A stretch of 64,000 nt of DNA from an uncultured Prevotellaceae bacterium (GTDB lineage: Bacteria > Bacteroidota > Bacteroidia > Bacteroidales > Bacteroidaceae), in contig CAMEQD010000006.1 of the NCBI GenBank assembly GCA_945932615.1, positions 5,825 to 69,824 on the forward strand, written 5' to 3'. Position numbers and translations under genes: made by a program. Below, in pieces: positions 1,600 through 58,342 of this stretch. Within the stretch, counting starts at the first letter, position 1. Each line of letters starts with the position of its first letter. The notes under the pieces are model-generated. The model saw only the letters and a program-made list of their open reading frames with translations. It did no database searches and had not been told where the DNA came from.

Positions 1600-1623
1600 T
1601 TTATTTCAATTTTCAGAGAAGAT

Positions 1624-2583: not shown

Positions 2584-2630
2584 GTAAACATTCAATTTAG
2601 GGATTACATCTGATTAAAAAATGGCATCAG
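2584..2630. repeat. Shared upstream motif B, copy 1
   Basis: GTAAACATTCAATTTAGGGATTACATCTGATT matches 5851-5882 at 27 of 32 positions. The similarity continues into AAATGGCATC / AAATGACATC. Confidence 0.7.
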
Positions 2631-2756
2631 CCATACCTATATTTGCGGGTGTCTCAGTGGTGTTTAAAAATCGGCAGAGAAATAAAAAACTGATTCTTAG
2701 ACCTAAATTGAGTGGTCACAGTAAACCTATACACCTAATTTGGTATTCCTACCGTC

Positions 2757-3182: not shown

Positions 3183-3358
3183 TTCAGAACCGCCTTCATA
3201 TCATTGATTTGAAGCTGGTAATCACTGTCAGAAGAAAAGAACCATTCTCCTAACTTGTTAAGCTTCTGTGGTAGTTTCTCCCTAAGTTCATGAAGATAAT
3301 TGTTTGACTTTACGTCATGCCTATAGGCAATATCATTATTTCTAATTGTTGTACCCAT
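3179..3358 (-). CDS. Putative antitoxin partner of the PIN toxin (59 aa, below the ORF-track cutoff)
   Basis: Hand translation of the reverse complement gives MGTTIRNNDIAYRHDVKSNNYLHELREKLPQKLNKLGEWFFSSDSDYQLQINDMKAVLK. Its TGA (3181-3179) overlaps the toxin ATG (3182-3180) as ATGA. Confidence 0.5.
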   Translation of the reverse strand: MGTTIRNNDIAYRHDVKSNNYLHELREKLPQKLNKLGEWFFSSDSDYQLQINDMKAVLK

Positions 3359-3657
3359 TGTATATTTACATTAATTTATTACATATTCTGTTGGTAAAGA
3401 TACAAGCTTTTTTTTAATTGACCAAGATCTTTCGTGAAAAAAATGACAATTAAGTAAGCACTCCACTTGTAACCGTAAACGACCATCGTAACGTAACCAC
3501 TATTTTTCAAATAGTTACGAGCTATTTTTTCAAAAAATGCTAAATTATTGCTTTGGATGGCAAGGATTGTGCCTTATAGCATGGCAGCATGGATAGAAGG
3601 TCAGAGGGACGGATTCCGCTGACCCACAATGAATCAAGGTGTGCCACCCCCCTCGAC

Positions 3658-4209
3658 TCATACCATACCTGCTATGTAGTGCATCTCTTCCACTACTAAT
3701 TGATTGAGGATAGGTGTCAACCGCTCAATCTTGTTACACTTCACTTTGTTGAAGTGGAAGTCGATATCATCGAGCAGCTCATAGGCCTGCTCATCTGACA
3801 TGTCGCCACCATAGCCGGCAGCGGTGATGGTGATGGCGGCCAGTTTACGGGCATTCTTATCTGTCGTCAGGTCGTACGCGCCGTGCAGGATATAGGGAAG
3901 CGTTTCATAGATGATGTTGCAGTAGTGCAGGAGCTCGTCGAAGTACTCCGACTCGATGAGATAGGCTTCAAGCATTTCTTCCTGATACCGTCTGAGAAGC
4001 AGGAAGTATTTCTCTTTGGCTATTTTGCCGCTCATGGGTCCGGTCATTACCCAAAACAGAGCGTGTGAAAGGACGATGCGGTCATCTGACTGGTGGTAGT
4101 AGAAGAGGCTGTCTTCGGGTGTCATGCTCTCCTGCAGCCGCTTCTCCATCTGTTCGAACATGACCTTGCGAGTCTCCTTCAGTTTTTGTTGTGTGTTGGG
4201 GGTAATCAT
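3658..4209 (-). CDS. Hypothetical protein (183 aa, no family recognised)
   Basis: Clean ORF preceded directly by the shared 125-bp upstream module (4225-4349). The sequence is helical-looking with no motif I can name. Confidence 0.55.
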   Translation of the reverse strand: MITPNTQQKLKETRKVMFEQMEKRLQESMTPEDSLFYYHQSDDRIVLSHALFWVMTGPMSGKIAKEKYFLLLRRYQEEMLEAYLIESEYFDELLHYCNIIYETLPYILHGAYDLTTDKNARKLAAITITAAGYGGDMSDEQAYELLDDIDFHFNKVKCNKIERLTPILNQLVVEEMHYIAGMV

Positions 4210-4224
4210 TGTATATTGGTAAAT

Positions 4225-4349
4225 GGTAAATGTCCGAATTCTGGGTCACCAAGCATTTGCTGCCTGAAAAACAGGCAGTTTGCAAAGTGTTCTAATTTTG
4301 GGGAATAGTTAATTTTAATGCGCTTTGTGCCAAAGGTGAGGCATGAAGC
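4225..4349. repeat. Shared upstream module A, copy 2 (125 bp)
   Basis: See copy 1. It ends 15 nt upstream of the 183-aa gene's ATG. Confidence 0.9.
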
Positions 4350-4351
4350 TG

Positions 4352-4555
4352 TCAATTGTACGATTCGGATTGTAAACTCTTGAGTGACGCTATGATGGAT
4401 TCATATTCGGCTGCCATAGCTTTCATCTCGTAGACATCCGAGCACATGAGCATACCTGATGCAATCTGGTTGAGCAGACGCAGTATCCATATTTGTAGCG
4501 AATTAAAATTTTACTCGTTGCAAACTGGGATGACTTTGAAACGAAGTTGGTTCAT
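4352..4555 (-). pseudogene. Small ORF interrupted by one in-frame TAA (gene remnant?)
   Basis: The minus-strand reading is MNQLRFKVIPVCNE*NFNSLQIWILRLLNQIASGMLMCSDVYEMKAMAAEYESIIASLKSLQSESYN*. The final stop lies 2 nt from repeat module A2. Confidence 0.2.
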
Positions 4556-4796
4556 ATAAAAGAGATTAATTTGGGGGGTGTACTAAATTTCACCCTATGA
4601 AAAAGTTGAAGCCCTATGGTAAAGCATTTTCTCAAAATTATTTACATCCTTGCTAATTTATAAAGGGTGAAGGGAGATGACAGAACTCTCTTTTAACAAA
4701 CACGTCATAATTCTCCTTTACCAAAATTACCATATCTAAATCATTTATAGACAAGGCTTACGCAGTTGTGCCTGAATTTGAAGCCTATCCTGTTAA

Positions 4797-5693
4797 TTAC
4801 TTATTCTCTTCATTGTCTGTTTCGGTTTCTTCAGAAAGGGAGTTCCACTGGTCTGCCGGAGGAAGATAGTCTGAAGCGCGTTCTGGAGAGATGATGGAAT
4901 GGCCAATCTGCTCTTCAAGTTTCTTGCGGGCTTCGCCTGCTATCTGTCCGCCTTTGTGGGCTATCTCGGCACTTTGACGATAGCCTTTGGGATTGCGGGC
5001 TTTTGAGATTTCAGCTGTGGAGGCTTCGGCAAAGATATTGAGGGCGAGTTCCATGTTTGTCATATTGTCGCGAAGGGATTCTTTGTGAAGACCTTTATAA
5101 CGTTTGTATTGTGCTGTGGTCTTGCCGCTCCATTCCTTGGTGATGATGTCGGTTAGGGTGGCATATTGCTGTCCTTCTTTCACTCCAGCACGATCCCACT
5201 CATCGGTGAGTACTTTGCGTATTTCGATTGACTTGAGTCGCTGATTGATCCATTTGTCGGAATAGCCCAGACGACGGTAGTCGTTATATGCTTGCTCGAA
5301 GTTGAGTTCTGGGTCTTGCATCTGGTCGAGACGGTCGGATGCTACCTGTGCCATCCATTGCTTGAAGGGTTCTGCCTTCTTGGAGGGAATGGACTGGATG
5401 ATGCGGAAGAGCTGTGGCTGAGTGGCGACATCGGTGAGGTATCGTTTGCCATCTTTGGGGGAAACTAATTTCAGTTGGTGACAATCTGTCACCGACTCAT
5501 TCCCTTCTTCCACGAGACGTTGTTTGAGTTTGTTCCAATACTTTCGAGCGGTATCATAATCTTTGCTATCTGCAAGAATCCAGCAGATGTCGATAATGGA
5601 GAAGTACCATTGCTGATCTTCTTCTGACCATACTGTTCGCACCTTCTGACCTTCGAAGAGTTGTATCTTAAAATTGTTCTTATCGTTTGCCAT
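4797..5693 (-). CDS. Bro-N domain protein, DinD-like (phage antirepressor-type)
   Basis: The likely start is MANDKNNFKIQLFEGQKVRTVWSEEDQQWYFSIIDIC (Bro-N). The C-terminal half (GLHKESLRDNMTNMELALNIFAEASTAE...GGQIAGEARKKLEEQIG) resembles E. coli DinD. The track ORF start at 5858 is an upstream extension. Confidence 0.75.
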   Translation of the reverse strand: MANDKNNFKIQLFEGQKVRTVWSEEDQQWYFSIIDICWILADSKDYDTARKYWNKLKQRLVEEGNESVTDCHQLKLVSPKDGKRYLTDVATQPQLFRIIQSIPSKKAEPFKQWMAQVASDRLDQMQDPELNFEQAYNDYRRLGYSDKWINQRLKSIEIRKVLTDEWDRAGVKEGQQYATLTDIITKEWSGKTTAQYKRYKGLHKESLRDNMTNMELALNIFAEASTAEISKARNPKGYRQSAEIAHKGGQIAGEARKKLEEQIGHSIISPERASDYLPPADQWNSLSEETETDNEENK

Positions 5694-5850
5694 ATTTATG
5701 GAAATTGGTCTGGATGTGGTTAATCTTAACCAATATCGCCTAATTCTCGCTGCAAAGTTATATAAAACCCCCGAATTACAAATCAGTCCTGATAAAAAAA
5801 ATAATGTCACTCCCCAAAATGTGCGGTTTTGAGAAAAATCAAGCCCGTAA

Positions 5851-5898
5851 GTAAGCACTCAATTTAGGGCACACATCTGATTTGACAAATGACATCTG
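5851..5898. repeat. Shared upstream motif B, copy 2
   Basis: GTAAGCACTCAATTTAGGGCACACATCTGATT lies here. A partial third copy (AAGTAAGCACTCC) lies at 3453-3465. Confidence 0.7.
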
Positions 5899-5969
5899 TC
5901 TAAGCTTTATTGGTGGCGTCTGGGTGATTTAAGAGGAAAATATTGGTTTTTATTGCCCTTCATGGGCAA

Positions 5970-6047
5970 GTGGAGATACTTGACAAAGTATGTGGAGATA
6001 CTTGGCAAGATATGTGGAGATACTTGGCAAAGTATGTGGAGATACTT
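5970..6047. repeat. 22-bp tandem repeat x3.5, each unit containing the palindrome ATACTT-GGCA-AAGTAT
   Basis: The units are GTGGAGATACTTGACAAAGTAT, GTGGAGATACTTGGCAAGATAT, GTGGAGATACTTGGCAAAGTAT and GTGGAGATACTT. The array ends 9 nt from the upxY stop. Confidence 0.9.
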
Positions 6048-6055
6048 TTTTTTGT

Positions 6056-6598
6056 CTACTTTAGCAGTTGGATGTATTCTGTCTCTACTTGTATGGCGGC
6101 GGAGAGGTTGCACTCCTGGAGATCGATGAGGAGCCGCTTGTGTTTGCTGCCTCGCTTGCACATGAGACGACCTTCGAAACCGTCAAGTTGGCCTCCGATG
6201 ATGCGGATATGCCTACCGTACAACTGGGGGGAGACTTCTTCGTAGCTGAAATACTCGACGTTTTCGGTCTGCATGACTGCGTGTCTGAAACGTTCGAATT
6301 CGATATGGCTCACGCTCATGACTTCGTATTGCTTGCCGCCACGGACGTAACGGAACTGCAATAACGGCATCCTGCGCACTATGGGGTCGAGGGTCTCTTT
6401 GGTCTTGTGTACAAAGATGAGGTCGGGCATGTAGGGGACTAAGCGGGCTACACGCTTGCCTGACTCTATGAATACGCGCTGCTTCATGGGTATGAAGACG
6501 CAATCCTCCATTTCTGGCATCGCCTGGAGTTCTTTGTAGGCGGGATTCTTTGCGTTCGGACGTGCCAGGTCGCGCAACACATACCAACGGTCTTCCAT
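6056..6598 (-). CDS. upxY: UpxY-family transcription antiterminator (NusG-like)
   Basis: 180 aa. MEDRWYVLRD...LIFVHKTKETLD...IRIIGGQLDGFEGRLM has the NGN plus KOW-like layout of Bacteroidales capsule-locus UpxY proteins. It is preceded by a long leader. Confidence 0.85.
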   Translation of the reverse strand: MEDRWYVLRDLARPNAKNPAYKELQAMPEMEDCVFIPMKQRVFIESGKRVARLVPYMPDLIFVHKTKETLDPIVRRMPLLQFRYVRGGKQYEVMSVSHIEFERFRHAVMQTENVEYFSYEEVSPQLYGRHIRIIGGQLDGFEGRLMCKRGSKHKRLLIDLQECNLSAAIQVETEYIQLLK

Positions 6599-6860
6599 GC
6601 TGTTGGGGGGCTTGGAAAGATTTGCTTGAATATTTAGATCTTCATCAGAGATATGTGCATACCTCTTAGTCCTGCTCGTTTCTCTTTATTACTGAGATAC
6701 AAGCAGTTACGCGGATACAGTGTGAGAGTTGGCATCTGAAGTCCGGCTTCAAGCCAGTCTGCGGTTTCATCTTAACCCTGTATTTCTATCTATCGTTTTA
6801 CACACTTACCGTGTGCACAAAATACTTCACCTCTTAGAAAGAGGAGTATTTTGCTGACGG

Positions 6861-19283: not shown

Positions 19284-19317
19284 TGAATTATTTTTTCTAC
19301 CTACAAGAGTTTAACGT

Positions 19318-19455
19318 TTTTTTGGGTGTTTTTTTGGGTGTTTGGTTGGGTGTTTGTTGGCTTATTTGTTTAATGCTAGTTTAATGGTTGTTTAATGGTT
19401 GTTTAACGAGTAGATCCAACTAAATAACTAAACAACTAAACAACAAACCTCACCC
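19318..19455. repeat. Intergenic palindromic element, GGTTGTTT/AAACAACC-type arms with GTTTAATGGTTGTTTAA core
   Basis: The left arm is G/T-rich (GGGTGTTTGGTTGGGTGTTTGTTGG). The core is TTTAATGCTAGTTTAATGGTTGTTTAATGGTTGTTTAAC. The right arm is A/C-rich (CAACTAAATAACTAAACAACTAAACAACAAACCTCACCC). Confidence 0.8.
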
Positions 19456-21250: not shown

Positions 21251-23793
21251 TCAAGGATTTCGGCAAAACAGCGATTGTCACCTCACACGGCGACATATCA
21301 TACAAGGAACTGCTCTGGCACATCGATCAGTTCGCACAGTATTCACCCAAGGCTAATTCTGGCTCATACTCTCCCAAAGATGCAAAAAAGACCATCATCT
21401 TCGCCGAAAACCGCGAGGGCTGGATATACGCATTCTTCTCGGTCTGGCGCAACAACGGCATAGCTATCACCGTAGATGCATCGTCGGGGGCTCACGACCT
21501 TGCGTATATGCTCAACGATTCGGGTGCGGAATGTATCTGGACTTCGCTGCAGAACGAAGCCGTCGTACGCGAGGCTCTCTCTGAGGTCAGCCACCACGTA
21601 GACGTGCTCATCATCGACCAGCACGAGCAGCAGGCGCCACCTGCCGAAATCCCCACGTCTGCCCCCTGGGATCGCGACGACAAGGAGATAGCCGTCATTA
21701 TCTACACGAGCGGCACGACGGGAGCCCCCAAGGGAGTTATGCTGACCTTTGCCAACCTCAGGGCCAATATCAATGGAGTACACAAGGAGGTCGAAATCTT
21801 CAACTCCGAACGCCGCGTGCTCATACTCCTGCCCCTGCACCACGTATTGCCCCTACAGGGCTCGATGATAGCCCCCATCACCATCGGTGGCGGTGTGGCC
21901 ATAGCACCGAGCATGTCTGGACCTGACATCATGGAGACCTTGTGTCGGGGTCGCGTAGCCATTTTCATCGGTGTGCCACGCCTCTGGCAAACGCTCTACA
22001 GCGGCATCATGAAGCAAATCAACTCATCGGCTCTGACCCGCGCCCTCTTTGCTCTCTGTGCCAAGGTGCAGAGCAAAACTCTCTCGCGCATCATCTTTGC
22101 CAAGGTACACAAAAAGATGGGAGGCAACATACGCTTCTGCGTCAGTGGTGGAGCGGCTCTCGATGCCGAGATAGGATATGGACTCAAGACTCTCGGACTC
22201 GAACTGCTCGAAGGCTACGGCATGACAGAGACTGCGCCAATCATCACCTTCACGCGCCCTGGCGACTATATCCCTGGCTGCGTAGGCTTCCCCCTGCCTT
22301 CGGTGGAGTGCAAGCTCATCAACACACACAAGGAGACTCTCAAAGATGGCAGCACCACCGATGTGGGCGAACTTTGCGCTAAGGGACCGAACGTCATGCT
22401 TGGCTACTATAACCGCCCTGAAGCGACGGCGGAGACCATCGATGCCGACGGCTTTATCCACACGGGCGACCTCGCTCGCTTTGACGATGCAGGGCGCGTC
22501 ATCATCACAGGACGTTGCAAGGAGATAATCGTCTTGTCGAACGGAAAGAACGTGCAGCCTGCCGAGATTGAGTTCAAGCTCGAAAAGTTTGAGCATCGCG
22601 TCAAGGAGGCAGCTGTCACTCAAGACGGAGATATGCTTCGCGCCATCATCGTCCCCGAACCGGTTTGGGCTCGTGACAAGAGCGATGAAGAACTGGAGCA
22701 GCTACTCAAGCGTGAGGTGCTCGAGCCCTACAACCAGCAGGCTCAGGGCTATAAGAAGCTCATGTCGCTCACAGTATACCGTGGAGATTTGCCACGCACT
22801 AAGCTCGACAAACTGCAACGCTTCAAGTTGAAAGCCATCGTCGATGCCGCCAAACAAGGTCATAGCGGTACGACGCAGACAAAGGTCGAAGAGCCTCAGA
22901 GTGAGGAATACCGAATACTCCGCGACTATATACATGGAGAAAAGAACATCATGCCACGCCCCGACGACCATATAGAGACGGATTTGGCAATGGACTCGCT
23001 CGACAAGGTAGGCTTGCAGGGATTTATCGAAAACTCCTTCGGCGTCAGCATCAACGCTGACGAGATGGCATCGTACGCCAGCGTAGCTGAAATGGCTGAC
23101 TACATAGCGCAGCACAAGACGCGTATGGAGGTAGAAAACATCGATTGGCATCGTCTCCTGACCGATGCCCGCATGAGTGGCTCAGGCTCTGCCCTACCCC
23201 AGACCTCGTGGACCCTGACGGCCATAGCATCGGTACTGACGGGATTCATACGCCGGCACAACAATCTGAAGACCATAGGCTCTGGCAACATACCTCAGTC
23301 AGGCCCCTACATACTCGCGGCCAATCATCAAAGCTTCATGGACGCACCAATCGTAATCTCTGGTCTGAGCAAGGAGCAGCAACGTCGCAACTATTTCTAC
23401 GCCACCGAAGAGCACATCCGCGGCAAGGTGCGCCGCGCTATGGCCGGCCGCAACAATATCATCATAATGGAGAGGACTGACCTCAAGAACTCCATTCTCA
23501 AGATGGCTCGCGTACTGCAAGACGGCAAGTCTCTCACCATCTTCCCCGAGGGCACACGTACTCGCACTGGCTATATGTCGGAGTTCAAGAAGACCTTTGC
23601 CATACTGTCGAAGGAACTCAACGTGCCCATCGTCCCCGTACGCATCACCGGTGCTTATCAGGCATGGCCACGCACGCGCAAGTTCCCTGACACCACCCCC
23701 GTGCAAGTGGAATATCTCCCACCCATATATCCCACAGAGGACGACACCTACGACACTCTGAGCAAGCGGGTGAGACAGAGTATTGCATTGTGA
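21247..23793 (+). CDS. Acyl-AMP ligase / carrier protein / PlsC-type acyltransferase fusion (Aas-like)
   Basis: It has an AMP-binding motif (YTSGTTGAPKGV), a phosphopantetheine-site-like motif (LAMDSLDKVGL), and acyltransferase motifs (NHQSFMD and FPEGTRTR). Its start overlaps the upstream stop (ATGA). Confidence 0.85.
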   Translation: MIKDFGKTAIVTSHGDISYKELLWHIDQFAQYSPKANSGSYSPKDAKKTIIFAENREGWIYAFFSVWRNNGIAITVDASSGAHDLAYMLNDSGAECIWTSLQNEAVVREALSEVSHHVDVLIIDQHEQQAPPAEIPTSAPWDRDDKEIAVIIYTSGTTGAPKGVMLTFANLRANINGVHKEVEIFNSERRVLILLPLHHVLPLQGSMIAPITIGGGVAIAPSMSGPDIMETLCRGRVAIFIGVPRLWQTLYSGIMKQINSSALTRALFALCAKVQSKTLSRIIFAKVHKKMGGNIRFCVSGGAALDAEIGYGLKTLGLELLEGYGMTETAPIITFTRPGDYIPGCVGFPLPSVECKLINTHKETLKDGSTTDVGELCAKGPNVMLGYYNRPEATAETIDADGFIHTGDLARFDDAGRVIITGRCKEIIVLSNGKNVQPAEIEFKLEKFEHRVKEAAVTQDGDMLRAIIVPEPVWARDKSDEELEQLLKREVLEPYNQQAQGYKKLMSLTVYRGDLPRTKLDKLQRFKLKAIVDAAKQGHSGTTQTKVEEPQSEEYRILRDYIHGEKNIMPRPDDHIETDLAMDSLDKVGLQGFIENSFGVSINADEMASYASVAEMADYIAQHKTRMEVENIDWHRLLTDARMSGSGSALPQTSWTLTAIASVLTGFIRRHNNLKTIGSGNIPQSGPYILAANHQSFMDAPIVISGLSKEQQRRNYFYATEEHIRGKVRRAMAGRNNIIIMERTDLKNSILKMARVLQDGKSLTIFPEGTRTRTGYMSEFKKTFAILSKELNVPIVPVRITGAYQAWPRTRKFPDTTPVQVEYLPPIYPTEDDTYDTLSKRVRQSIAL

Positions 23794-23830
23794 GGTAATT
23801 GTTATTTGGTTGTTTGGTTATTTAGGTCTA
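23791..23830. repeat. Half element (G/T-rich arm only) starting at the stop codon
   Basis: The sequence is TGAGGTAATTGTTATTTGGTTGTTTGGTTATTTAGG. Confidence 0.6.
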
Positions 23831-29151: not shown

Positions 29152-30173
29152 AAAAGACTGCACTGATACTCCTTGCTGCCGCGCTCTCGCTGACGGCTTG
29201 CAAGAAGGAGAACTTCTTCCCCACAGCGAGCGGACGCCCATACGAAGTGCTCGTAGTGATGGACAGCACAGACTGGAAGGCTCCTCATGGGCGTGCTTTG
29301 TTTGACGTGCTCGACACTGACGTTCCCATGCTGCCTCAGAGCGAGCGTTCGTTTCGCATCTCGCAGACCGAGGTCAAGGACTTTGACCGTGTGCTCAACA
29401 TCTTCCGCAACATCATCATCGTCAACATTGACCCGCACCAGTTCACGCGCACCAAGATGAAATTCACTCGCGACAAGTGGGCGATGGAGCAGATTGTACT
29501 CACCATCAATTCGCCATCGGAGGAGGAGTTTCGCAACTTCTGCGTCGAGCACCGTCAGGATATAGTAGACTTCCTCACCCGCACCGAGATGAACCGCCTG
29601 GTCAAGGAACTGAAGCAGAAACACTCCAAGGTCACTTTCGACCTTGCAAAGCAGATATTCGACTGTGAAATCTTTGCGCCCAAAGAGCTGCAGTCATACA
29701 AGAAGGGCAAGGACTTCGTCTGGACGAGCAACAATACCGCGAGCGGTCTGGAGAATATGGTCATCTACTCATACCCGTACGAAGGCCCACAGACTTTCAA
29801 CAAAGAGTACCTCTGCCACAAGCGCGACTCCGTCATGCAGGTCAACCTCCCCGGCGAGAAGCCAGGCATGTATATGCAGACCGATACTCTCTGCACCGTA
29901 GTGCGACCAATCGTTGTTCACAACAACTACGCCATGGAGATGCGTGGTCTATGGATAATGCGCAATGACTGTATGGGTGGCCCTTATGTCAGCCATCACA
30001 GGGTAGACACCGAAAACAACAGGGTCATCGTAGTCGAGGGCTTCGTCTATGCCCCCGAGAAGATGAAGCGTGGCCTGATACGCCGCCTCGAAGGCTCGCT
30101 ATACACTCTAAAACTGCCTGAGGAGCAATATGTAATCGAAATCAACCCGGGAGTGGAGGAGGAGAAGAAATGA
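29148..30173 (+). CDS. DUF4837-like lipoprotein
   Basis: MKKTALILLAAALSLTAC is a lipobox, followed by SGRPYEVLVVMD...LPQSERSF. Its ATG overlaps the rlmN TGA (ATGA). Confidence 0.7.
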   Translation: MKKTALILLAAALSLTACKKENFFPTASGRPYEVLVVMDSTDWKAPHGRALFDVLDTDVPMLPQSERSFRISQTEVKDFDRVLNIFRNIIIVNIDPHQFTRTKMKFTRDKWAMEQIVLTINSPSEEEFRNFCVEHRQDIVDFLTRTEMNRLVKELKQKHSKVTFDLAKQIFDCEIFAPKELQSYKKGKDFVWTSNNTASGLENMVIYSYPYEGPQTFNKEYLCHKRDSVMQVNLPGEKPGMYMQTDTLCTVVRPIVVHNNYAMEMRGLWIMRNDCMGGPYVSHHRVDTENNRVIVVEGFVYAPEKMKRGLIRRLEGSLYTLKLPEEQYVIEINPGVEEEKK

Positions 30174-30382
30174 GTTTGGAGGTTTTGAGGTTATGAGGTT
30201 GTAAGGTTATTAGGTTATAAGGTTTTGCCTTTACTTTAATAGCACATTAAATAGCCATTAAATGACAATTAAAACATTATGACCTCAAAAATAACCTCAT
30301 AACCTTAAAACCTTAAAACCTCATAACCTCAAAAATAACCTCATAACCTTAAAACCTCATAAACCTCATAACCTCAATAAAA
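30171..30382. repeat. Intergenic palindromic element, GAGGTT/AACCTC type (archetype)
   Basis: The 26-nt arm at 30183-30208 (TTTTGAGGTTATGAGGTTGTAAGGTT) is complementary to 30309-30334 at 25 of 26 positions. The core is AT-rich, and the right arm is duplicated and runs up to the next ATG. Confidence 0.9.
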
Positions 30383-31039
30383 ATGTTCAACCTCAAAATA
30401 GGAATCACCCATAGCGATGATTGGGGCAAAGCCCTGATTGCAGACAAGTTTGAAGAGAGTGAAGAGAAAGACATGATGTCAGACATCTGCACTCCTACCT
30501 TTTACGAAGCCCAAGGCGAAGAAGGCATAGACCAGGCTCTCCACGACTGGGAGGAGGGGCTCACCGATGCTATCCTCATCGTACAAGAAGAAGGCAAGTG
30601 GCGACTCAACCCTGCCAGTCTACGCGGTACGGACATGCTCGTATGGGGCGATGTTCGTCTGGCCTTTGCCACAGACGAATGCGGCATGGAGGAGCAGATA
30701 GACGACATGACCTACGCATTGCGTCGTGAGTTCGAAATCGACAAGCCACGCATAGCGGCTGCCTTCGATACCGACAATCTCCACGCATACGACGTAGTCC
30801 TGACCAAAGACAGGGATGAGGCCATACAGACCTTTCTCGAAATCACACGAGGTCACGGTATTGTCTACACTACAGGGCGCGAACTCGTAGCGACATCTCC
30901 CCTCAGCCCCGAGAGTCTCAACCAGTGTATATATCTCTCGAAGGATATCCTTGCCGCACGCTCACGCTATGATGCTGCACGCAGCAACCCCCTGCCCAAA
31001 TTGTTTCATGACCGCAAGGAAGACCCAAGGCGCAGCTAA
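30383..31039 (+). CDS. Hypothetical acidic protein (218 aa)
   Basis: Clean ORF with the local codon style. The N-terminal KIGITHSDD only vaguely recalls PdxA-type starts, so I assign no family. Confidence 0.55.
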   Translation: MFNLKIGITHSDDWGKALIADKFEESEEKDMMSDICTPTFYEAQGEEGIDQALHDWEEGLTDAILIVQEEGKWRLNPASLRGTDMLVWGDVRLAFATDECGMEEQIDDMTYALRREFEIDKPRIAAAFDTDNLHAYDVVLTKDRDEAIQTFLEITRGHGIVYTTGRELVATSPLSPESLNQCIYLSKDILAARSRYDAARSNPLPKLFHDRKEDPRRS

Positions 31040-34491: not shown

Positions 34492-35235
34492 ATGTCACGA
34501 CAAGTAATCGACTACATTCGACAGAGCGATATGCTCGACACCCAGTCCGTGGAACATCTGCGTAGCATGGTTGACAAGTATCCATACTACCACGCCGCAC
34601 GCATACTCTTGCTCCGCGCCCTATACAAGATGCACGACTCTGCGTTCAACGAGCAGTTGCACAAGGCTGCCATCTATGTACCTTCGCGTCAGACTCTGTT
34701 CCAGATGTTTGAGTCAGACAACCATGCCCCCGAGTCGCCTGCAGTACGCCAGTCACGGGCAGCCGAGGTAGACGAAGAAGACCGTACCCAGGCTCTCATC
34801 GACAACTTCATCGGCAATATGCCAAGTCCGAGTCCCTCACCCAAGCATACCGTCGATGCCACCCAAGACTATATGGCATACCTCATGCAGATGGAGAAGG
34901 AGACTGCCCCCACCCAGACTCAAGCTCCCCCAATGCACGGACAGGACATCATCGACGATTTCCTCACCAACAACGAAGGCCGGTTCGAAATCACTGACCT
35001 TCCCGAAAGTGGCACACCACACATCGACGAATCCTTCCAAAATGACGTCGGGACAGGAGTTTTGACTGAAGCAATGGCTCGTATATACATAAAACAAGGC
35101 AAATATGACAAGGCTATCGAAATTATTCAGCGCATTTCCTTGAAATATCCGAAAAAAAATCGTTACTTTGCAGACCAAATACGGTTTTTACGCAAACTGA
35201 TCATCAACGAACAGGCAAAAGAGTCGTTGATGTGA
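34492..35235 (+). CDS. TPR-like repeat protein
   Basis: The C-terminal AMARIYIKQGKYDKAIEIIQRISLKYPKK is a TPR-like helix pair. The start at 34492 comes directly after the upstream stop. Confidence 0.6.
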   Translation: MSRQVIDYIRQSDMLDTQSVEHLRSMVDKYPYYHAARILLLRALYKMHDSAFNEQLHKAAIYVPSRQTLFQMFESDNHAPESPAVRQSRAAEVDEEDRTQALIDNFIGNMPSPSPSPKHTVDATQDYMAYLMQMEKETAPTQTQAPPMHGQDIIDDFLTNNEGRFEITDLPESGTPHIDESFQNDVGTGVLTEAMARIYIKQGKYDKAIEIIQRISLKYPKKNRYFADQIRFLRKLIINEQAKESLM

Positions 35236-35384
35236 GGTGAGGTTTTGAGGTTATGAGGTTGTGAGGTTTTGAGGTTTTTAACGCCTGTTTAATGGTCGTT
35301 TAACAAGTAGAACCAACTAAACAACTAAACAACAAAAGAACCAACCAAACAACAAAATAACAAAACAACTAAACAACAAAATAA
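35233..35384. repeat. Intergenic element, chimeric (GAGGTT-type left arm, AAACAAC-type right arm)
   Basis: It reads TGAGGTGAGGTTTTGAGGTTATGAGGTTGTGAGGTTTTGAGG, then the core TAACGCCTGTTTAATGGTCGTTTAAC, then AACTAAACAACTAAACAAC... up to the secG ATG. Confidence 0.8.
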
Positions 35385-40796: not shown

Positions 40797-42922
40797 ACAA
40801 GACAATAGCAATGGTAGCGCTCGCGGGCGCTACCCTTTTCAATTTTAGTGCCATGGCACAAAACCGACTCATGACGCCCGAGATACTCTGGTCCATGCAC
40901 CGTCTCGGCAGCCGCAGCGTAAGCACGGAGGGCAATCTCATAGCCTACTCTGTAAGCACTCCAGACATTCCTGCCAACAAAAGCCGTAGCCACATCGACA
41001 TCATCAGCCTCGATGGCAGTAGCTCCCATCACATCAGCCCCGAAGGGCAGAACCCCAACCAGCCCACTTTCGTCACACTCAGCGGCACAGAGCGCATAGC
41101 CTACCTACAAGGCGGTGACCTCTGGAGCGCAGCTACCGACGGCAGCGACCTACGCCAGCACAGCAACACTGGCGACATCGAAGGCTTCCTCTTCTCTCCC
41201 GATGGCAGTCGAGTCATCACCATACGCCAAGTGCCTGCCACGAGCAGCATCCAGGCTAAAGAACCAGACCTGCCACTGTCAACAGGACTCGTCATCGACG
41301 ACATGAACTACAAGCACTGGGATCAATACGTGCAGACCATTCCCCACATCTTCCTCAGCACATTCAGTCTCACAGACGGAATCGGGGAGATGACTGACAT
41401 ACTACAGGGTGAGCCCTACGAATGTCCTGTACTCCCATTTGGCGGCACGGAGCAGTTCTGCTTCTCACCCGATGGCAACAAGATAGCCTATACAAGCCGC
41501 AAGAAGACAGGTGTAGACTATGCCATCTCTACCGACACTGACATCTACCTCTACGACATAGCCACCAAGCAGACCACCAATCTGTGCAAACAGGACAATG
41601 CCGACAAACAGCAAGGTTATGACCAAGACCCACAATTTTCGCCCGACGGCAGCAAGCTCGCATGGCGCAGCATGGAACGCGATGGCTACGAAAGCGACTT
41701 TTCACGCCTCTGCGTAATGGACATGCAGACACAGGGCAAGACCTACGTCAGCCACCAGTTCAAGAGCTCTGGCGTAGATGCTTTCTGCTGGAACACTGAC
41801 AACAAGCAACTCTATTTTTCTGCCGTACACCACGGCTGCCAAAACATCTATAGCGTAGACCTCCAGGGACAAATCACCACCATCGCTGACGGCCAATACG
41901 ATTATGGTACACCACAATATATCCCAGGCCGCAACCTGCTACTCGTCAATCGCCACAGTATGTCAGCCCCCGATGATTTGTATCTCATCACCTTGCCCCG
42001 ATCAGGCAAGAAGTCCAAGAAGCAGGAATCGACAATCACTCAGCTTACCACACTCAACGCAGACATATATCAGGACCTCGCTGTCAGCGATGTAAAGCCA
42101 CGCTGGGTAGCCACCACCGACGGCAAAGAAGAGCTATGCTGGGTCGTCTATCCGCCACAGTTCGACCCTACAAAGAAATACCCCACTCTGCTCTTCTGCG
42201 AAGGTGGCCCACAGAGTCCTGTCAGCCAATTCTGGTCATATCGATGGAATTTCCAGATTATGGCAGCCCACGGCTACATAGTCATCGCCCCCAACCGTCG
42301 CGGACTTCCTGGTTTTGGTATCGAGTGGAACGAAGCAATCAGCGGAGACTACTCAGGGCAATGTATGCAAGACTACCTCTCAGCCATCGACGATATCTGT
42401 CGCGAGCCATACGTAGATCGCGAGCGTCTCGGCTGCGTAGGAGCCTCGTTTGGAGGATATAGCGTATACTGGCTGGCTGGCAACCACGAGAAGCGTTTCA
42501 AAGCCTTCATCGCCCACGACGGCATCTTCAACTTTGACCAGCAGTACTACGAGACCGAAGAGATGTGGTTCCCCAACTGGGACCTCGGCGGAGCCCCCGA
42601 GCAGTTTGGCATAACCGCTACAGGACAAGCCTCTGGCACCAAGAGCGTAGGCACCCAAGCTAAGATACGCCACAACGTCTATCTCGATTCCCCTCACCGC
42701 TATGTAGACCGTTGGGACACCCCCATACTCTGCATTCACGGCGAGAAAGACTACCGCATACTCCACTCACAAGGTCAGGCAGCATTCTCTGCCGCACGCA
42801 TGCACGGCATACCAGCCCAGCTCCTGCTCTTCCCCGACGAAAACCATTGGGTACTACGTCCGCAAAACGGCATACTCTGGCAACGCACCTTCTTCCGCTG
42901 GCTTGACAGGTGGTTGAAGTGA
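40793..42922 (+). CDS. S9-family serine peptidase (prolyl oligopeptidase / acylaminoacyl peptidase-like)
   Basis: It has a signal peptide, a beta-propeller-like N-terminal half, GASFGGY (GxSxGG) and a terminal DENH region. Its ATG overlaps the yidC stop (ATGA). Confidence 0.85.
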   Translation: MNKTIAMVALAGATLFNFSAMAQNRLMTPEILWSMHRLGSRSVSTEGNLIAYSVSTPDIPANKSRSHIDIISLDGSSSHHISPEGQNPNQPTFVTLSGTERIAYLQGGDLWSAATDGSDLRQHSNTGDIEGFLFSPDGSRVITIRQVPATSSIQAKEPDLPLSTGLVIDDMNYKHWDQYVQTIPHIFLSTFSLTDGIGEMTDILQGEPYECPVLPFGGTEQFCFSPDGNKIAYTSRKKTGVDYAISTDTDIYLYDIATKQTTNLCKQDNADKQQGYDQDPQFSPDGSKLAWRSMERDGYESDFSRLCVMDMQTQGKTYVSHQFKSSGVDAFCWNTDNKQLYFSAVHHGCQNIYSVDLQGQITTIADGQYDYGTPQYIPGRNLLLVNRHSMSAPDDLYLITLPRSGKKSKKQESTITQLTTLNADIYQDLAVSDVKPRWVATTDGKEELCWVVYPPQFDPTKKYPTLLFCEGGPQSPVSQFWSYRWNFQIMAAHGYIVIAPNRRGLPGFGIEWNEAISGDYSGQCMQDYLSAIDDICREPYVDRERLGCVGASFGGYSVYWLAGNHEKRFKAFIAHDGIFNFDQQYYETEEMWFPNWDLGGAPEQFGITATGQASGTKSVGTQAKIRHNVYLDSPHRYVDRWDTPILCIHGEKDYRILHSQGQAAFSAARMHGIPAQLLLFPDENHWVLRPQNGILWQRTFFRWLDRWLK

Positions 42923-42962
42923 GGATTACAACAAAACAACCAAACAACAAAACAACACCAAA
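42920..42962. repeat. Half element (A/C-rich arm only) forming the MFS gene leader
   Basis: The sequence is TGAGGATTACAACAAAACAACCAAACAACAAAACAACACCAAA, followed by ATG. Confidence 0.55.
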
Positions 42963-44333
42963 ATGCAAAAACTATCCGACAACCCAACCCTGCGTTGGAC
43001 CGCCCTTGGCATCGTCAGCACCGCCATGATGATGGGCTACTTCTTCACCGACGTCATGTCACCCCTCGAAGACCTCCTCACCATCGATCTCGGCTGGAAG
43101 AGCAGCGAGTACGGCTTCTTCTCCGGAGCCTACGGACTGATTAACGTATTCCTCCTCATGCTCTTCTTCGGCGGCATCATACTTGACAAGATGGGCATAC
43201 GCTTCACCAGCATACTCAGTGCAACACTTATGCTCGCAGGCGCCCTCATCAAGTGGTACGCCGTGACCAGTATACCCACAGATGCTGTCGCGAAGTGGTT
43301 TAGCCTCCACCTCATCATCATCAACATCGACACCCCACATCTCACCACTCTCGTGGCAGCCCTCGGCTTTGCTATCTACGGAGTAGGCTGTGAGATAGCA
43401 GGCATCACCGTCACCAAGATTATTACCAAGTGGTTCACTGGACACGAGCTCGCCCTCGCTATGGGACTTCAGGTAGCCCTTGCCCGTATCGGCACGATGA
43501 TGGCCATGTGGTGCTCACTCCCCATAGCCAACCATTTCGGCGGCATACCTACCAGCGTAGGTCTCGGAGCTGCCCTTCTCTGTATAGCACTCGTGTTCTT
43601 CATCATCTACTGCTTCATGGATCTCCGCCTCGATGCCAGCACCCGCAATCAGGACGGCAGCGACTCCAGCAGCAGCGACGAAGCCTTCCATCTCAGCGAC
43701 ATGGGTGCAATCTTCACCAACCCTGGTTTCTGGGTCATCTGCCTGCTCTGCCTCATGTTCTACGGCGGTGTGTTCCCCTTCCTCAAGTTTGCCACTAAAC
43801 TTATGATAATGAAATACCACGTCCCGAGCGACTTCGCTGGCATGATACCAGGTATGCTCCCCATGGGCACTATGATTCTTACCCCAATCTTTGGCAATAT
43901 TTATGACCGCCAGGGGCATGGTGTGCTCCTCATGTTGCTCGGCTCCGTACTACTTACTCTCGTGCACGTACTCTTCGCCCTGCCTATACTCCCCTACTGG
44001 TGGTTTGCCATCATCGTCATCATCATACTCGGCATTGCCTTCTCGCTCGTGCCAAGCGCCATGTGGCCCAGCGTCCCCAAGATGATACCCATGAAGCTCC
44101 TCGGCAGCGCATACGCCATGATTTTCTTTATACAGAACATAGGGCTCTCGCTCATACCGATGATGATAGGTGAAGTCAACCAGGCCAACACTGACAAACA
44201 TGGTCTCGTCAACTACGCCCCCTCGATGAGCATCTTTGCCTTGTTCGGCATCATCTCGATTCTGCTCAGTCTCCTGCTGCTCAGACTCGACAAAGCCAAA
44301 GGCTACAAACTCGAAGAGAAGAATATTAAGTGA
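42963..44333 (+). CDS. MFS transporter
   Basis: 456 aa with about 12 hydrophobic helices and a central hydrophilic loop. Confidence 0.75.
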   Translation: MQKLSDNPTLRWTALGIVSTAMMMGYFFTDVMSPLEDLLTIDLGWKSSEYGFFSGAYGLINVFLLMLFFGGIILDKMGIRFTSILSATLMLAGALIKWYAVTSIPTDAVAKWFSLHLIIINIDTPHLTTLVAALGFAIYGVGCEIAGITVTKIITKWFTGHELALAMGLQVALARIGTMMAMWCSLPIANHFGGIPTSVGLGAALLCIALVFFIIYCFMDLRLDASTRNQDGSDSSSSDEAFHLSDMGAIFTNPGFWVICLLCLMFYGGVFPFLKFATKLMIMKYHVPSDFAGMIPGMLPMGTMILTPIFGNIYDRQGHGVLLMLLGSVLLTLVHVLFALPILPYWWFAIIVIIILGIAFSLVPSAMWPSVPKMIPMKLLGSAYAMIFFIQNIGLSLIPMMIGEVNQANTDKHGLVNYAPSMSIFALFGIISILLSLLLLRLDKAKGYKLEEKNIK

Positions 44334-44634
44334 GGTTTTGAGGTTATAAGGTTTTGAGGTCGCTTCGCTTGTGAGGTTATTTTTGAGGTTTTGAGGTCGC
44401 TTCGCTTGTGAGGTTATTTTTGAGGTTTTGAGGTCGCTTCGCTTGTGAGGTTATTTGTGAGGTTTTAAGGTCGCTTCGCTTGTGAGGTTTTGAGGTTATA
44501 AGGTTTTTAATGCCCGTTTAATGGTTGTTTAATGGTTATTAAAGGGCTAAAGGTATTAAACCTTATAACCTTAAAACCTCAAAACCTTATAACCTCAAAA
44601 ATAACCTTAAAACCTCAAAACCTTATAACCCTCA
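44331..44634. repeat. Intergenic palindromic element, GAGGTT/AACCTC type, with internal tandem expansion
   Basis: A perfect 24-nt inverted repeat pairs 44336-44359 with 44577-44600. The core is GTTTAATGGTTGTTTAATGG. The element spans from the TGA of the MFS gene to the TGA (minus strand) of the TrmH gene. Confidence 0.9.
44356..44490. repeat. 37-bp tandem repeat x3.6 inside the left arm
   Basis: The unit is GAGGTCGCTTCGCTTGTGAGGTTATTTTTGAGGTTTT, starting at 44356, 44393, 44430 and (partial) 44467. GGTCGCTTCGCTTGTGAGG also occurs at 58343-58361. Confidence 0.9.
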
Positions 44635-46744: not shown

Positions 46745-46753
46745 TTTATGCCG

Positions 46754-46838
46754 TTTTTTTTGGTTATTTGGTTGTTTGGTTGCAACCAGAATACTATTAG
46801 TTCCAACCAAACAACAAAACAACTAAACAACAAAAAAC
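46754..46838. repeat. Intergenic palindromic element, GGTTGTTT/AAACAACC type
   Basis: TTGGTTATTTGGTTGTTTGGTTG is followed by a 21-nt core, then CAACCAAACAACAAAACAACTAAACAAC. Confidence 0.75.
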
Positions 46839-46839
46839 A

Positions 46840-46871
46840 TTTGGAATTGTGCTCGCTTATTCGTAACTTTG
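46840..46871 (+). promoter_or_regulatory. Promoter copy 1: TTTG-N20-TAACTTTG (33-bp exact duplicate of copy 2)
   Basis: ATTTGGAATTGTGCTCGCTTATTCGTAACTTTG occupies 46839-46871. Confidence 0.6.
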
Positions 46872-46926
46872 AGCTGCGCTCTAAGTTACTTCCGCTCGAC
46901 AATTCCCAATCAAAAACAAGTTTTTA

Positions 46927-46958
46927 TTTGGAATTGTGCTCGCTTATTCGTAACTTTG
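46927..46958 (+). promoter_or_regulatory. Promoter copy 2 for trmD: TTTG-N20-TAACTTTG
   Basis: The identical 33-mer occupies 46926-46958. The -7 box ends 9 nt before the trmD ATG (46968). Confidence 0.65.
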
Positions 46959-56338: not shown

Positions 56339-58342
56339 ATGAGCCTAAATACCCAACAAATCGCCCGTCTCGAAAGCCAAGGTTGCAGCTGCGACGACTG
56401 GAGCCAGATACACATCGCCCCCGAGACCAACCTCAAATACATACGCCAAGTACGTTTCTCCGGCATCTGCCACATCGGCAGCTTCACACGCGACTTCGAC
56501 ATGCCCGGAGGCATGAAGAAACACAGCGGCATCTACCGAGCCCTCCTCCACAACGTCAACGTCGGCAACGACAGCTGCATTGAAAACATCAAGAACTACA
56601 TCGCCAACTACGACATCGGCCACGACAGCTTCATCGAAAACGTCGACACCATCATGGTCGACGCCCCCAGCAGTTTCGGCAACGGAGTCGAAGTCTCCGT
56701 CCTCAACGAGACCGGCGGACGCGAAGTCACCATCCACGACCAGCTCACAGCCCACGAAGCCTACATGGCAGCCATGTACCGCCACCGTCCCCAGCTCATC
56801 GAGCGACTCAGACAGATGGCCCTCGCCCACACCGCCCGCCGCACCAGCGACCGCGGCCACATCTCCCCCCACAGCACCATCATCGACGCCCACATCATAC
56901 GCAACGTCTACGTAGGCCCCCACTGCCGCATCGAAGGCGCCTCACGCCTCAGCAACGGCTCCCTCATGAGCCGCCAAGAGAGCCCCATCTACATCGGCAG
57001 CGGAGTCATGATCGACGACTTCATCATACAAGACGGCACGAGCATCACCGACGGCACCATGCTCACCCGCGTCTACGTAGGCCAATGCTGCACCATGGGT
57101 CACACCTACTCCGCCACCGACAGTCTCTTCTTCAGCAACTGTCAGGAAGAAAACGGCGAAGCCTGCTCCATCTTCGCAGGCCCCTTCACCGTCACCCACC
57201 ACAAGAGCACCCTCCTCATCGCCGGCATGTTCAGCTTCATGAACGCAGGCTCAGGCAGCAACCAGAGCAACCACATGTACAAGCTCGGCCCCATACACCA
57301 AGGCTCCATGGAGCGCGGAGCCAAGACCACCTCAGACTCCTACATCCTGTGGCCTGCCCGCATCGGAGCCTTCTCCCTCGTCATGGGGCGTCACACCAAA
57401 AACCCCGACACCTCCCAGATGCCCTTCTCCTACCTCATCGAGAAAAACGGCGAGACCTACATCGTCCCCGGCATCAACCTCCGCTCCGTCGGCACCATAC
57501 GCGACGCCCAGAAATGGCCCAAGCGCGACAAGCGCCACCCCCAGCAGCGTCTCGACCAAATCAACTACAACCTCCTCAGCCCCTACACCATCGACAAGAT
57601 GGTCCACGGCCTCGCCATACTCCAACAGCTTCAAGAACTCTCCGGAGCCACCAGCGACACCTACACCTACCAAAGCGCCTCCATCACCCGTCGCTCCCTC
57701 AAGCGCGGCATTGAGCTCTACCGCATCGGCATCGACAAATTTCTCGGCAACTCCCTCATCAGCCACCTCGAAAAGACCCTCACCACCATCAGCCACCCCA
57801 ACCCCACCCACGAGCAAATCGTTCGCCACCTCCTCGACCACCTCGCCCCCACCAGCGACGAAGGCAAAGGCACATGGCTCGACATGGCAGGCCTCATCGC
57901 CCCCCACGCCCTCATCACCGACATCATCGACAAAGTCGAGCAAGGCACCATCGACACCCTCGAAGCCCTCCAAAGAGAAATCTCCCAGCTCCACACCCGC
58001 TACTACGACCTCGAATGGACCTGGGCCTACGACCTTATGCTACGCCACTACCACCTCGACCCCACCCACATCACCCCCGCCGACCTCATCACCATCATCG
58101 AGTCATGGCAAACCTCCGTAGTCACCCTCGACAAGATGCTCTACGACGACGCCCGCAAAGAGTTCAGCATCACCGCCCAGACAGGCTTCGGTTTCGACGG
58201 CACACTCCCCTCCACCATAGCCGCCGACTTCGAGCAAGTACGAGGCGATTTTGAAAGCAACCCCTTCGTCAGTGCCGTCACAGCACACATAGCCACAAAG
58301 ACCGCCCTCGGAGAAAAATGGAAGGAGATATTAAGGTTATGA
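56339..58342 (+). CDS. DUF4954-like protein (beta-helix-like N-terminal half)
   Basis: 667 aa. The start LNTQQIARLESQGCSCDDWSQI and hexapeptide-like stretches fit my memory of the family, which I cannot verify here. Confidence 0.65.
   Translation: MSLNTQQIARLESQGCSCDDWSQIHIAPETNLKYIRQVRFSGICHIGSFTRDFDMPGGMKKHSGIYRALLHNVNVGNDSCIENIKNYIANYDIGHDSFIENVDTIMVDAPSSFGNGVEVSVLNETGGREVTIHDQLTAHEAYMAAMYRHRPQLIERLRQMALAHTARRTSDRGHISPHSTIIDAHIIRNVYVGPHCRIEGASRLSNGSLMSRQESPIYIGSGVMIDDFIIQDGTSITDGTMLTRVYVGQCCTMGHTYSATDSLFFSNCQEENGEACSIFAGPFTVTHHKSTLLIAGMFSFMNAGSGSNQSNHMYKLGPIHQGSMERGAKTTSDSYILWPARIGAFSLVMGRHTKNPDTSQMPFSYLIEKNGETYIVPGINLRSVGTIRDAQKWPKRDKRHPQQRLDQINYNLLSPYTIDKMVHGLAILQQLQELSGATSDTYTYQSASITRRSLKRGIELYRIGIDKFLGNSLISHLEKTLTTISHPNPTHEQIVRHLLDHLAPTSDEGKGTWLDMAGLIAPHALITDIIDKVEQGTIDTLEALQREISQLHTRYYDLEWTWAYDLMLRHYHLDPTHITPADLITIIESWQTSVVTLDKMLYDDARKEFSITAQTGFGFDGTLPSTIAADFEQVRGDFESNPFVSAVTAHIATKTALGEKWKEILRL

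Follow-up and report, generated by a model that had tools for sequence, protein, structure and literature searches.

The window analyzed here, a 64-kb bacterial chromosome segment of an uncultured gut Prevotellaceae, carries genes typical of Bacteroidota (DUF4837, SecG, YidC, LptE, a sigma-54 activator, agmatine deiminase, and CarB, as assigned with Pfam), and nine of its approximately 45 intergenic spacers hold related elements built from tandem octamers, which amount to about 2.4% of its length. Proteins identical to those of the window were found on gut-metagenome contigs. The closest nucleotide match among GTDB genome loci was an uncultured Prevotella metagenome-assembled genome (MAG) (77%), and the closest named protein match was Paraprevotella (67%). 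A search for tRNA genes in the window yielded none.

The element on which this work centers starts at the end of the DUF4837 gene. Its left arm (30171–30227, + strand) begins at the TGA stop codon of that gene, lies within a C-free run (30149–30227), and consists of GTTNNNNN / GAGGTTNN octamers, for which Tandem Repeats Finder reported a period of 8 and 5.8 copies; each of the three frames meets a stop codon within 32 nt. It is followed by an AT-rich core (30228–30281, +) of degenerate 11-mers (CACATTAAATAG / CCATTAAATGA), with period-11 arrays at 30238–30273, and this core coincides with the loop region of the minimum-free-energy fold. The right arm (30282–30382, +), with a G-free run of 103 nt, is composed of NNAACCTY octamers and 13-nt AATAACCTCAAAA variants, contains no ATG, GTG, or TTG, and ends with AATAAAA directly 5' of the ATG at 30383.

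A sequence-only reading of the window had listed nine intergenic regions with related elements, and all nine were confirmed by the sequence and by Tandem Repeats Finder, which detected period-8 arrays in the arms on both sides (3–11 copies) and period-11 arrays in the cores. The general build is a G/T arm that has no C and is made of 8-bp units (GAGGTTNN or GGTTGTTT) at one end, usually an AT-rich core of 11-mers (GTTTAATGG/CCATTAAAC) in the middle, and a G-free A/C arm with NNAACCTY or CAACNAAA units at the other end. Since the units are short and degenerate, and since in viral contigs arrays of composition-matched control octamers (8, 59, 10, and 17 loci) were about as frequent as GAGGTT arrays (15 loci), the likeness of the nine regions might be ascribed to chance similarity of low-complexity G/T and A/C runs, which is how the earlier proposal of a repeat family could have failed. 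This was not borne out. The window has 47 runs of 28 nt or more that lack either G or C, as compared with a mean of 10.4 and a maximum of 20 in mononucleotide shuffles, a 4.5-fold excess, and the arms are the longest of these runs (103, 108, and 119 nt without G). Together with the strict periodicity, the unique core segments common to different copies, and the intergenic and polar placement, this makes chance similarity an explanation that we regard as practically excluded, and it supports the view that the nine regions form a single related family of repeats that are intergenic and largely palindromic. The resemblance of GAGGT to a Shine-Dalgarno sequence, and of AACCTC to its rRNA partner, was considered and rejected as an explanation: in viral contigs the control octamers were as common or commoner, so that the likeness of GAGGT is incidental, and the second arm family, GGTTGTTT, bears no such likeness.

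A strict strand rule, G/T after stop codons and G-free before start codons, was missing from the sequence-only reading. All of the copies (9/9) are intergenic, five of them between same-strand neighbors, the aguA-aguB pair included, and the order on the sense strand is constant: stop codon, C-free G/T arm, core, G-free A/C arm, A-run, and ATG. The stop codon is usually TGA and itself lies within the first array unit. The elements had been described as inserted into spacers, but they were found to be the whole spacer, with the last conserved codon on one side and the next ATG on the other. At aguA-aguB, for example, protein conservation stops at ...CCTMQYP, and the tails and stop codons that follow (SEVIL* in the window and LFIV* in a close relative) are array-encoded, the final five residues and stop codon of the window aguA coming from the first units of a GAGGTT left arm. 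In 8 of 10 cases, a G/T arm closes all three frames with a stop codon within 32 nt, and the A/C arms, which are 30–300 nt long, lack ATG, GTG, and TTG altogether and end in an A-run.

The same build, with variations, was found at the other eight sites. The copy at 19316–19455 (−) separates two minus-strand genes, encoding a HAD hydrolase and a fucosidase; the stop codon of the former (19428–19430) lies inside the array, and the order on the sense (−) strand is G/T arm, (CCATTAAACAA)x3.7 core, G-free arm, and a promoter box, TATCTTTG, at approximately 19283. The sites at 23791–23830 (+) and 42920–42962 (+) are lone arms, the first a G/T arm of the GGTTGTTT/GGTTATTT type that begins at the TGA of an AMP-binding/acyltransferase gene and the second a G-free CAACNAAA arm that constitutes the entire 40-nt spacer between S9 peptidase and MFS genes. 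Between a TPR gene and secG lies the copy at 35233–35384 (+), with a GAGGTT left arm (35233–35281), a GTTTAATGGTCGTTTAAC core, and a G-poor CAACNAAA right arm (35309–35384); its arms are non-complementary, and it is kept in a close relative with unit changes. The copy at 44331–44634 (+) is situated between convergent genes (MFS and SpoU methylase) and consists of a left arm (44331–44512) that includes 3.8 copies of a 37-mer carrying GGTCGCTTCGCTT, a core with two copies of GTTTAATGG, and a right arm (44554–44634) that terminates at the stop codon of the minus-strand gene. A short copy between divergent genes (46753–46842, +) has a GGTTGTTT arm, a GCAACCAGAATACTATTAGTTCC center, and a CAAACAAC arm, and both of its arms are upstream of outward-facing promoters, the boxes of which (TACCTTTG at 46720, −, and TAACTTTG at 46864, +) are outside the arms. 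The copy at 58331–58611 (+), between the DUF4954 and agmatine deiminase genes, has a core with AAACAAACCTTAAATGGACATTAAAAA and a right arm with a 108-nt G-free run up to the ATG, and its left arm is interrupted at 58365–58430 by an unrelated GC-rich hairpin repeat. The last copy (59571–59823, +) fills the junction between the agmatine deiminase and N-carbamoylputrescine amidase genes (aguA-aguB) with a GAGGTT left arm, a core with two copies of CCATTAAAC, and a G-poor right arm of approximately 150 nt that ends in A9 before the ATG. The arms-and-core build, as proposed at first, stands except for the two lone arms and for the 46754 copy, which is without the CCATTAAAC core. The shared core motif was found as an exact 9-mer in only four elements (19318, 35233, 44331, and 59570), whereas the 30171 and 58331 cores hold only CATTAAA-like versions. 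The proposal that the core occurs in both orientations was supported, relative to the arms as well as to the genes.

Bacteroidetes-type −7 boxes (TAnnTTTG) were located outside the arms at 19316–19455 and 46753–46842, and a promoter within the core was rejected as a candidate, as a Bacteroidetes-type −33/−7 pair is present in no core. As a separate observation, a 13-nt variant unit, GAGGTTATTTTTG, makes a −7-like box, TATTTTTG, at 44378 and 44415 (+) and at 44603, 30337, and 30293 (−). These boxes point inward from the flanking gene into the element, those on the plus strand with a TTTG 17–23 nt upstream, and could be cryptic inward or antisense promoters or a coincidence.

The arm pairings quoted in the sequence-only reading were reproduced: positions 30183–30224 pair with 30293–30334 at 90% over 42 nt, and positions 44336–44360 pair with 44576–44600 at 100% over 25 nt. 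No shuffle was as stable as the RNA folds of 30171–30385 (−68 kcal/mol, z −9.9), 44331–44634 (−134 kcal/mol, z −13.8), or 59570–59826 (−65 kcal/mol, z −8.8). These three copies thus fold beyond shuffled controls, but the 35233–35384 copy, with its GAGGTT and CAACNAAA arms, did not fold beyond chance (z −1.1 versus shuffles). Arms pair in many registers, and mixed-family arms occur in the 35233 copy and also in locus L027. A tuned stem was rejected, since permuting the unit order of the right arm left the folding energy unchanged (z −1.5 to +0.2); pairing is therefore a property of the unit family. In the predicted mRNA structures, the start region from −20 to +12 was mostly unpaired in nine of ten spacers (0.58–0.96; 0.27 in the exception), and in the six spacers folding below approximately −70 kcal/mol most of the 30 nt that follow the stop codon were paired (unpaired probability, 0.01–0.36).

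Stable hairpins directly 3' of stop codons, one of them between convergent genes, raise the question of terminators or attenuators, either as bidirectional hairpins or with the G-free, C-rich arm (approximately 24–40% C in the measured arms) serving as a Rho loading site to halt read-through and antisense transcripts. G-free tracts of 80–300 nt that contain C have the appearance of such sites. However, the G/T arm ties up most of the C-rich arm in the folds, and several copies split gene pairs that overlap in relatives, and hence are probably co-translated, where termination would silence the downstream gene. Intrinsic terminators of the canonical type were rejected: the stems are rich in A-U and G-U pairs and are followed by A-runs, in place of a GC-rich stem with a U-tract, and a terminator scan gave no match inside any element. 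We consider a terminator or attenuator role improbable.

Comparison with strains and relatives demonstrated that the elements change rapidly. Strain contigs of the same species (L001–L007) differ by whole units (+8, +8, −37, and +12 nt). In a syntenic close relative (L122 and L127), the agmatine deiminase is 95% identical and ordinary spacers are near-identical by eye to those of the window; unit or module copy number was altered at the 35233, 42920, 44331, and 58331 sites, the 42920 spacer having grown to 72 nt and the 44331 array having been cut to one copy of the 37-mer. At the 30171 and 59570 sites of this relative, the element was fully replaced, from stop codon to ATG, by another element of approximately 135 nt with GTTGTTTA/CAAACAAC arms, and the two replacing copies, although at unlinked sites, are 86% identical over the full length, the unique core included. 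Within the window, a unique core segment is common to 19355–19455 and 35270–35370, in opposite orientation relative to their genes, and another is common to 58445–58560 and 59620–59730; the mean column identity in alignments of the core-sharing copies was 75–77%. The aguA-aguB junction provided the widest range of fillings. In relatives at 72–74% identity the two genes overlap by 4 bp (L124, 4026–4029; L125, 3972–3975), at 81% identity they are separated by an unrelated 194-nt spacer with a 24-nt direct repeat (L243, 1106–1299), and at 67% identity by a 304-nt block of GTAGAGACGGG-type GC-hairpin repeats (L126, 3802–4105), while a GTTGTTT-type element (L122, 3976–4110) and a GAGGTT-type element (59590–59823) occupy the junction in the close relative and in the window, respectively. 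Judged by these fillings, the junction is a hot spot, and the strain and relative comparisons indicate that the elements are recent, lineage-specific colonizers of gene junctions that evolve by slippage and by whole-element copying.

The sequence-only reading had likened the elements to miniature inverted-repeat transposable elements (MITEs) and repetitive extragenic palindromes (REPs). A classical mobile element of this kind would be moved by a transposase encoded elsewhere (RAYT/IS200-IS605-like or other) that recognizes the arms or GGTCGCTTCGCTT, the arrays being subterminal binding repeats. The dispersed copies with 86% whole-length homology, the cores common to unlinked sites in both orientations, the replacement of whole cassettes at two sites, and the retention of the 13-mer across genera inside otherwise fast-changing arrays all speak for it, as does a precedent in Geobacter metallireducens, where ISGme8/ISGme9 are inserted at a fixed distance from paired octamer sites (PMC2700814). 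On the other hand, copies differ mostly by whole-unit slippage, lone arms and mixed-family arms occur, and a SecG leader in an array-less context is already similar to one array unit, as would be compatible with arrays that grew where they are. No terminal inverted repeats with discrete, fixed ends were found, the arrays being of variable length and ending at codon boundaries. The comparison of relatives suggested at the outset did reveal presence/absence and replacement, but no target-site duplication was seen between the filled sites (window and L122) and the empty ones (L124/L125), the flanks of which are about 25% diverged with the original two codons lost. No transposase was found among the open reading frames (ORFs) scanned against Pfam, which came from the 64 kb of the window and approximately 30 kb of a relative, nor beside any copy in the window. 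Dispersal thus stands, and a classical MITE or REP is, in our estimation, an unlikely description of the whole.

Several observations concern modules within and beside the arrays. The 13-nt module GGTCGCTTCGCTT is conserved across genera within arrays. A module spanning two octamer slots, RAGGTCGCTTYGCTT (44358–44489 and 58343–58357 in the window), is conserved in hypervariable GAGGTT arrays of several Alloprevotella and Bacteroidales MAGs, with examples in L012, L016, L037, L048, L055, L067, L071, L079, L083, L092, L122, and L127; in the window it has been amplified as a 37-mer in 3.8 copies. The GC-rich hairpin repeat of approximately 70 nt (GGCTKCGCCTTCGTTTCC...GGAAACG) sits in GAGGTT arrays at a constant point of the unit (GAGGTT^...^TTTT), at 58365–58430 in the window and at L001 15498–15562 and 15740–15880, L007 1495–1585, and L244 1876–1916; tandem clusters occur, and some strains (L007 and L244) have it in the 59570-type element, of which the window copy is without it. 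It has the look of a REP-like mobile element with the arrays as its target. Contigs on which the upstream neighbor differs were found to encode identical agmatine deiminase and SecG proteins, and a comparison of L006 (1170–1240) with the window (58320–58345) showed an FKBP gene joined within a GAGGTT-type array, suggesting that arrays may be breakpoints of rearrangement or misassembly. In L134 (440–730), an ordinary promoter is followed by a single-copy leader resembling one array unit.

The architecture is not specific to this genome but was encountered in many phyla. When one genome per species was scanned for four GAGGTTNN-type units, at least 113 loci were returned. Many of the matches listed were from Prevotellaceae, Alloprevotella, and other Bacteroidales, and others were from Flavobacterium, Haliscomenobacter, Desulfobacterales, Acidobacteriota, Planctomycetota, Verrucomicrobiota, Gammaproteobacteria, and cyanobacteria; many of the listed loci have the same architecture with lineage-specific units, such as GAGGTTGC ... 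GYAACCTC. Among the matches listed, inverted partner arrays lay downstream of the G/T array at 28 of 92 genome loci and upstream at none. Read on the G/T strand, the arrays abut the left neighbor (either a stop codon or the beginning of a gene on the opposite strand), with median distances at the listed loci of 18 nt to the left gene versus 112 nt to the right; for the Bacteroidota among them, the medians were 14 and 108 nt, and the left gene was the closer in 53 of 60 cases. The bias was weaker among the matches listed from other phyla (left gene closer, 22/33), and other period-7/period-8 arrays in the same loci behaved alike (29/35). Universality of this gene-abutment rule was rejected, as it is strong in Bacteroidota, weaker elsewhere, and not found in viral contigs. 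In L121, a Deltaproteobacteria MAG, octamer-array palindromes at 394–700 and 4007–4400, 3.6 kb apart, have a common GC-rich core hairpin (GGGCCGATACGGTGATCGGCCC), which shows the same modular build of arrays and a shared unique core in a distant phylum. The viral contigs L136 and L137 contain complete octamer-array palindromes of the GAGGTTCA/TGAACCYT type, two per contig approximately 6 kb apart, and the only reversed case seen, an A/C arm before a G/T arm, was in the viral contig L147 (895–1010). A phage origin of the elements was rejected, as megablast against phage records gave no match.

The elements matched no Rfam family at the gathering threshold, the sub-threshold matches being to plant microRNA hairpins only, and a description of these repeat units was not found in the searchable literature, where queries with unit sequences returned primer noise only. 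This agrees with the earlier failure to recognize a described family. The repeats are real and apparently undescribed as a family, but they can be assigned to an already known class of intergenic repeats in bacteria. They share with REPs and bacterial interspersed mosaic elements (BIMEs) an extragenic, palindromic nature, a location at gene 3' ends and within operons, many copies, and strain variability. They resemble REPs/BIMEs also in that these form mRNA hairpins that can stabilize upstream segments, as the elements here can form hairpins, and are targets for insertions, as the arrays are for the GC-rich hairpin repeat. REPs, however, are single imperfect palindromes of 20–40 nt with a conserved sequence and are tied to RAYT transposases, whereas here the basic unit is an 8-bp direct repeat, the arms vary in length, and palindromy exists only between whole arrays; the elements have no conserved palindrome of the REP type and are not known to have a RAYT. 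With MITEs they have dispersed copies of whole-length similarity in common (86% over approximately 135 nt). The BrickBuilt MITEs have defined terminal inverted repeats and interior tandem units of approximately 22–23 bp, unlike the elements here, in which tandem repeats of 8-bp units form the arms. As described in Porphyromonas gingivalis (PMC4596501), BrickBuilt elements are otherwise similar in being intergenic and strain-variable elements of a Bacteroidales species with inverted and internal tandem repeats. Tandem units of 5–11 nt beyond chance, polymorphic in copy number between strains, are likewise features of long simple sequence repeats (Mrazek et al. 2007), and the elements here share with these, with cyanobacterial short tandemly repeated repetitive (STRR) heptamers, and with TAACTGA repeats an intergenic location, tandem units of 7–8 nt with slippage-type length variation, and a sporadic phylogenetic distribution. 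TAACTGA arrays occur in one orientation just upstream of start codons (MacGregor 2015, PMC4679880), a place like that of the A/C arms. All three are single direct arrays, however, whereas the elements here combine two complementary-type arrays as a palindrome around a core, are extreme in composition (one arm without G and the other without C), and have a stop-side arm as well as a start-side arm. Integron attC sites (RYYYAAC ... GTTRRRY) were rejected as candidates, since GTT-rich sequence here precedes AAC-rich sequence and the flanking genes are syntenic housekeeping genes.

The closest published description that we found is that of paired octanucleotide sites in Geobacter metallireducens, the class 1 consensus of which is GTTGCTYN (Aklujkar et al. 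2009, PMC2700814). Those sites likewise consist of at least four tandem 8-bp units in opposite-strand pairs at a variable distance, have a unit that begins with GTT, are intergenic and sometimes lie between genes of one pathway, and are limited to one species of the genus with many copies. Compared by the published description, their unit consensus differs from GAGGTTNN or GGTTGTTT, their arrays are shorter and more uniform, and neither a relation to start or stop codons nor an AT-rich 11-mer core was reported. They were proposed, without experiments, to be sites for IHF/HU or a global regulator (PMC2700814). By analogy, the arrays here might bind an abundant DNA- or RNA-binding protein, nucleoid-associated or a global regulator, that organizes local DNA or controls promoters. 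The regular 8-bp phasing and the inverted arrays at variable distance would suit such a protein, and two of the sites have bona fide Bacteroidetes-type promoters whose −40 to −85 region is taken up by the A/C arms. Yet units differ freely in sequence, both inside one genome and from genome to genome (GAGGTTNN, GGTTGTTT, GGGTGTTT, and others), their copy number shifts from strain to strain, close relatives have lost or swapped sites with the neighboring genes unchanged, and most copies are in probable operons, far from promoters. Protein binding as the function thus seems to us doubtful, to about the same degree as termination.

The interpretation that we favor, and to which we give an even chance of being right, is that the elements are semi-selfish simple-sequence palindromes, analogous to REP/BIME and MITE. 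Each would be a non-coding modular spacer of a G/T-rich 8-bp array, usually an AT-rich 11-bp core, and a G-free, A/C-rich 8-bp array. The arrays grow and shrink through replication slippage, as the strain comparison shows, and copying of whole elements to other intergenic sites, or their replacement there, is shown as well, with ectopic recombination via the arrays or a transposition activity as candidate processes. They would be tolerated, operons included, because their gene-facing ends are harmless by construction. An upstream gene running into the G/T arm is closed at once, since TGA, TAA, or TAG is offered in all three frames within about 30 nt, and the A/C arm, being without G, has no start codon and no strong structure on its own and finishes with an A-run before the ATG. 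As the A/C arm is the type of leader used by Shine-Dalgarno-blind Bacteroidota ribosomes, the order would always be G/T then A/C, and given a palindrome in mostly tandem-gene contexts, the other arm must be C-free, which happens to make it rich in stop codons. Arms of the same family that are co-transcribed could pair into a long, register-slippery hairpin, with approximately 20 nt before the start codon predicted to stay open. By analogy with REP/BIME, this hairpin probably acts as an intercistronic mRNA stabilizer, a processing site, or a decoupling element. In Prevotella bryantii, no functional use of Shine-Dalgarno sequences was found, and structure at the ribosome-binding region inhibits translation while strong structure 20 bp upstream is tolerated (PMC3155529); in Bacteroidetes, AUG is depleted near start codons (PMC6847099). 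The strand rule fits this known Bacteroidota translation without Shine-Dalgarno pairing.

Several points weigh against this interpretation. The arms of the 35233 copy show that pairing is dispensable, and the native unit order pairs no better than a shuffled one, so that the hairpin may be a by-product; any role for it is one that we infer. At 19316–19455 and 46753–46842 the A/C arms are upstream of promoters and not in the leader, and all five convergent-gene cases (5/5) also have G/T followed by A/C, which leader selection alone does not explain. The conservation of GGTCGCTTCGCTT across genera is a hint that a protein recognizes it or that it spreads horizontally. Moreover, the ORF calls behind the cross-genome statistics are crude, and arrays in viral contigs have no gene-abutment bias, with one in reversed order.

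A bolder and rather unlikely extension is that inverted octamer arrays constitute a cross-phylum class of mobile intercistronic cassettes, bringing their own stop codons in all frames at one end and a start-codon-free leader at the other, which insert between genes or split overlapping ones harmlessly and spread by a recombination or transposition activity recognizing modules such as GGTCGCTTCGCTT, while hairpin and leader set relative operon expression in Shine-Dalgarno-independent bacteria. If the favored interpretation, semi-selfish simple-sequence palindromes, is correct, a sizeable intergenic share in some Prevotellaceae would be hypervariable repeat DNA able to split formerly overlapping genes with both kept expressed. 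For annotation, this would mean that C-terminal tails and stop codons come from repeats, and for gut-metagenome assembly and strain typing, that arrays sit where contigs end and, in at least one of these contigs, at the junction of a gene-order change. For studies of Bacteroidota expression, the elements would provide naturally occurring G-free leaders and hairpins with which intercistronic expression could be understood or engineered in organisms that disregard Shine-Dalgarno sequences. Three features are of interest, namely the strand rule, element ends that supply stop codons and a leader, and the rapid turnover of cassettes inside operons, and the strand rule across phyla is a testable statement on which repeats can persist beside genes.

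Two other features of the window were observed. The region 1–6600 is low in GC (41–43%), encodes ORF6N, PIN, and Bro-N domain proteins, holds no octamer elements, and contains a duplication (2487–2554 / 4263–4320) as well as tandem repeats of 22–23 bp (1616–1660 and 5970–6047); it is probably a mobile or prophage-derived island. The upstream promoter region of trmD (TTTGGAATTGTGCTCGCTTATTCGTAACTTTG) is a tandem duplicate (46835–46871 and 46922–46958, 87 bp apart), and the TTG "start" of the ORF listed at 46869 really belongs to the first −7 box of this duplicated promoter.

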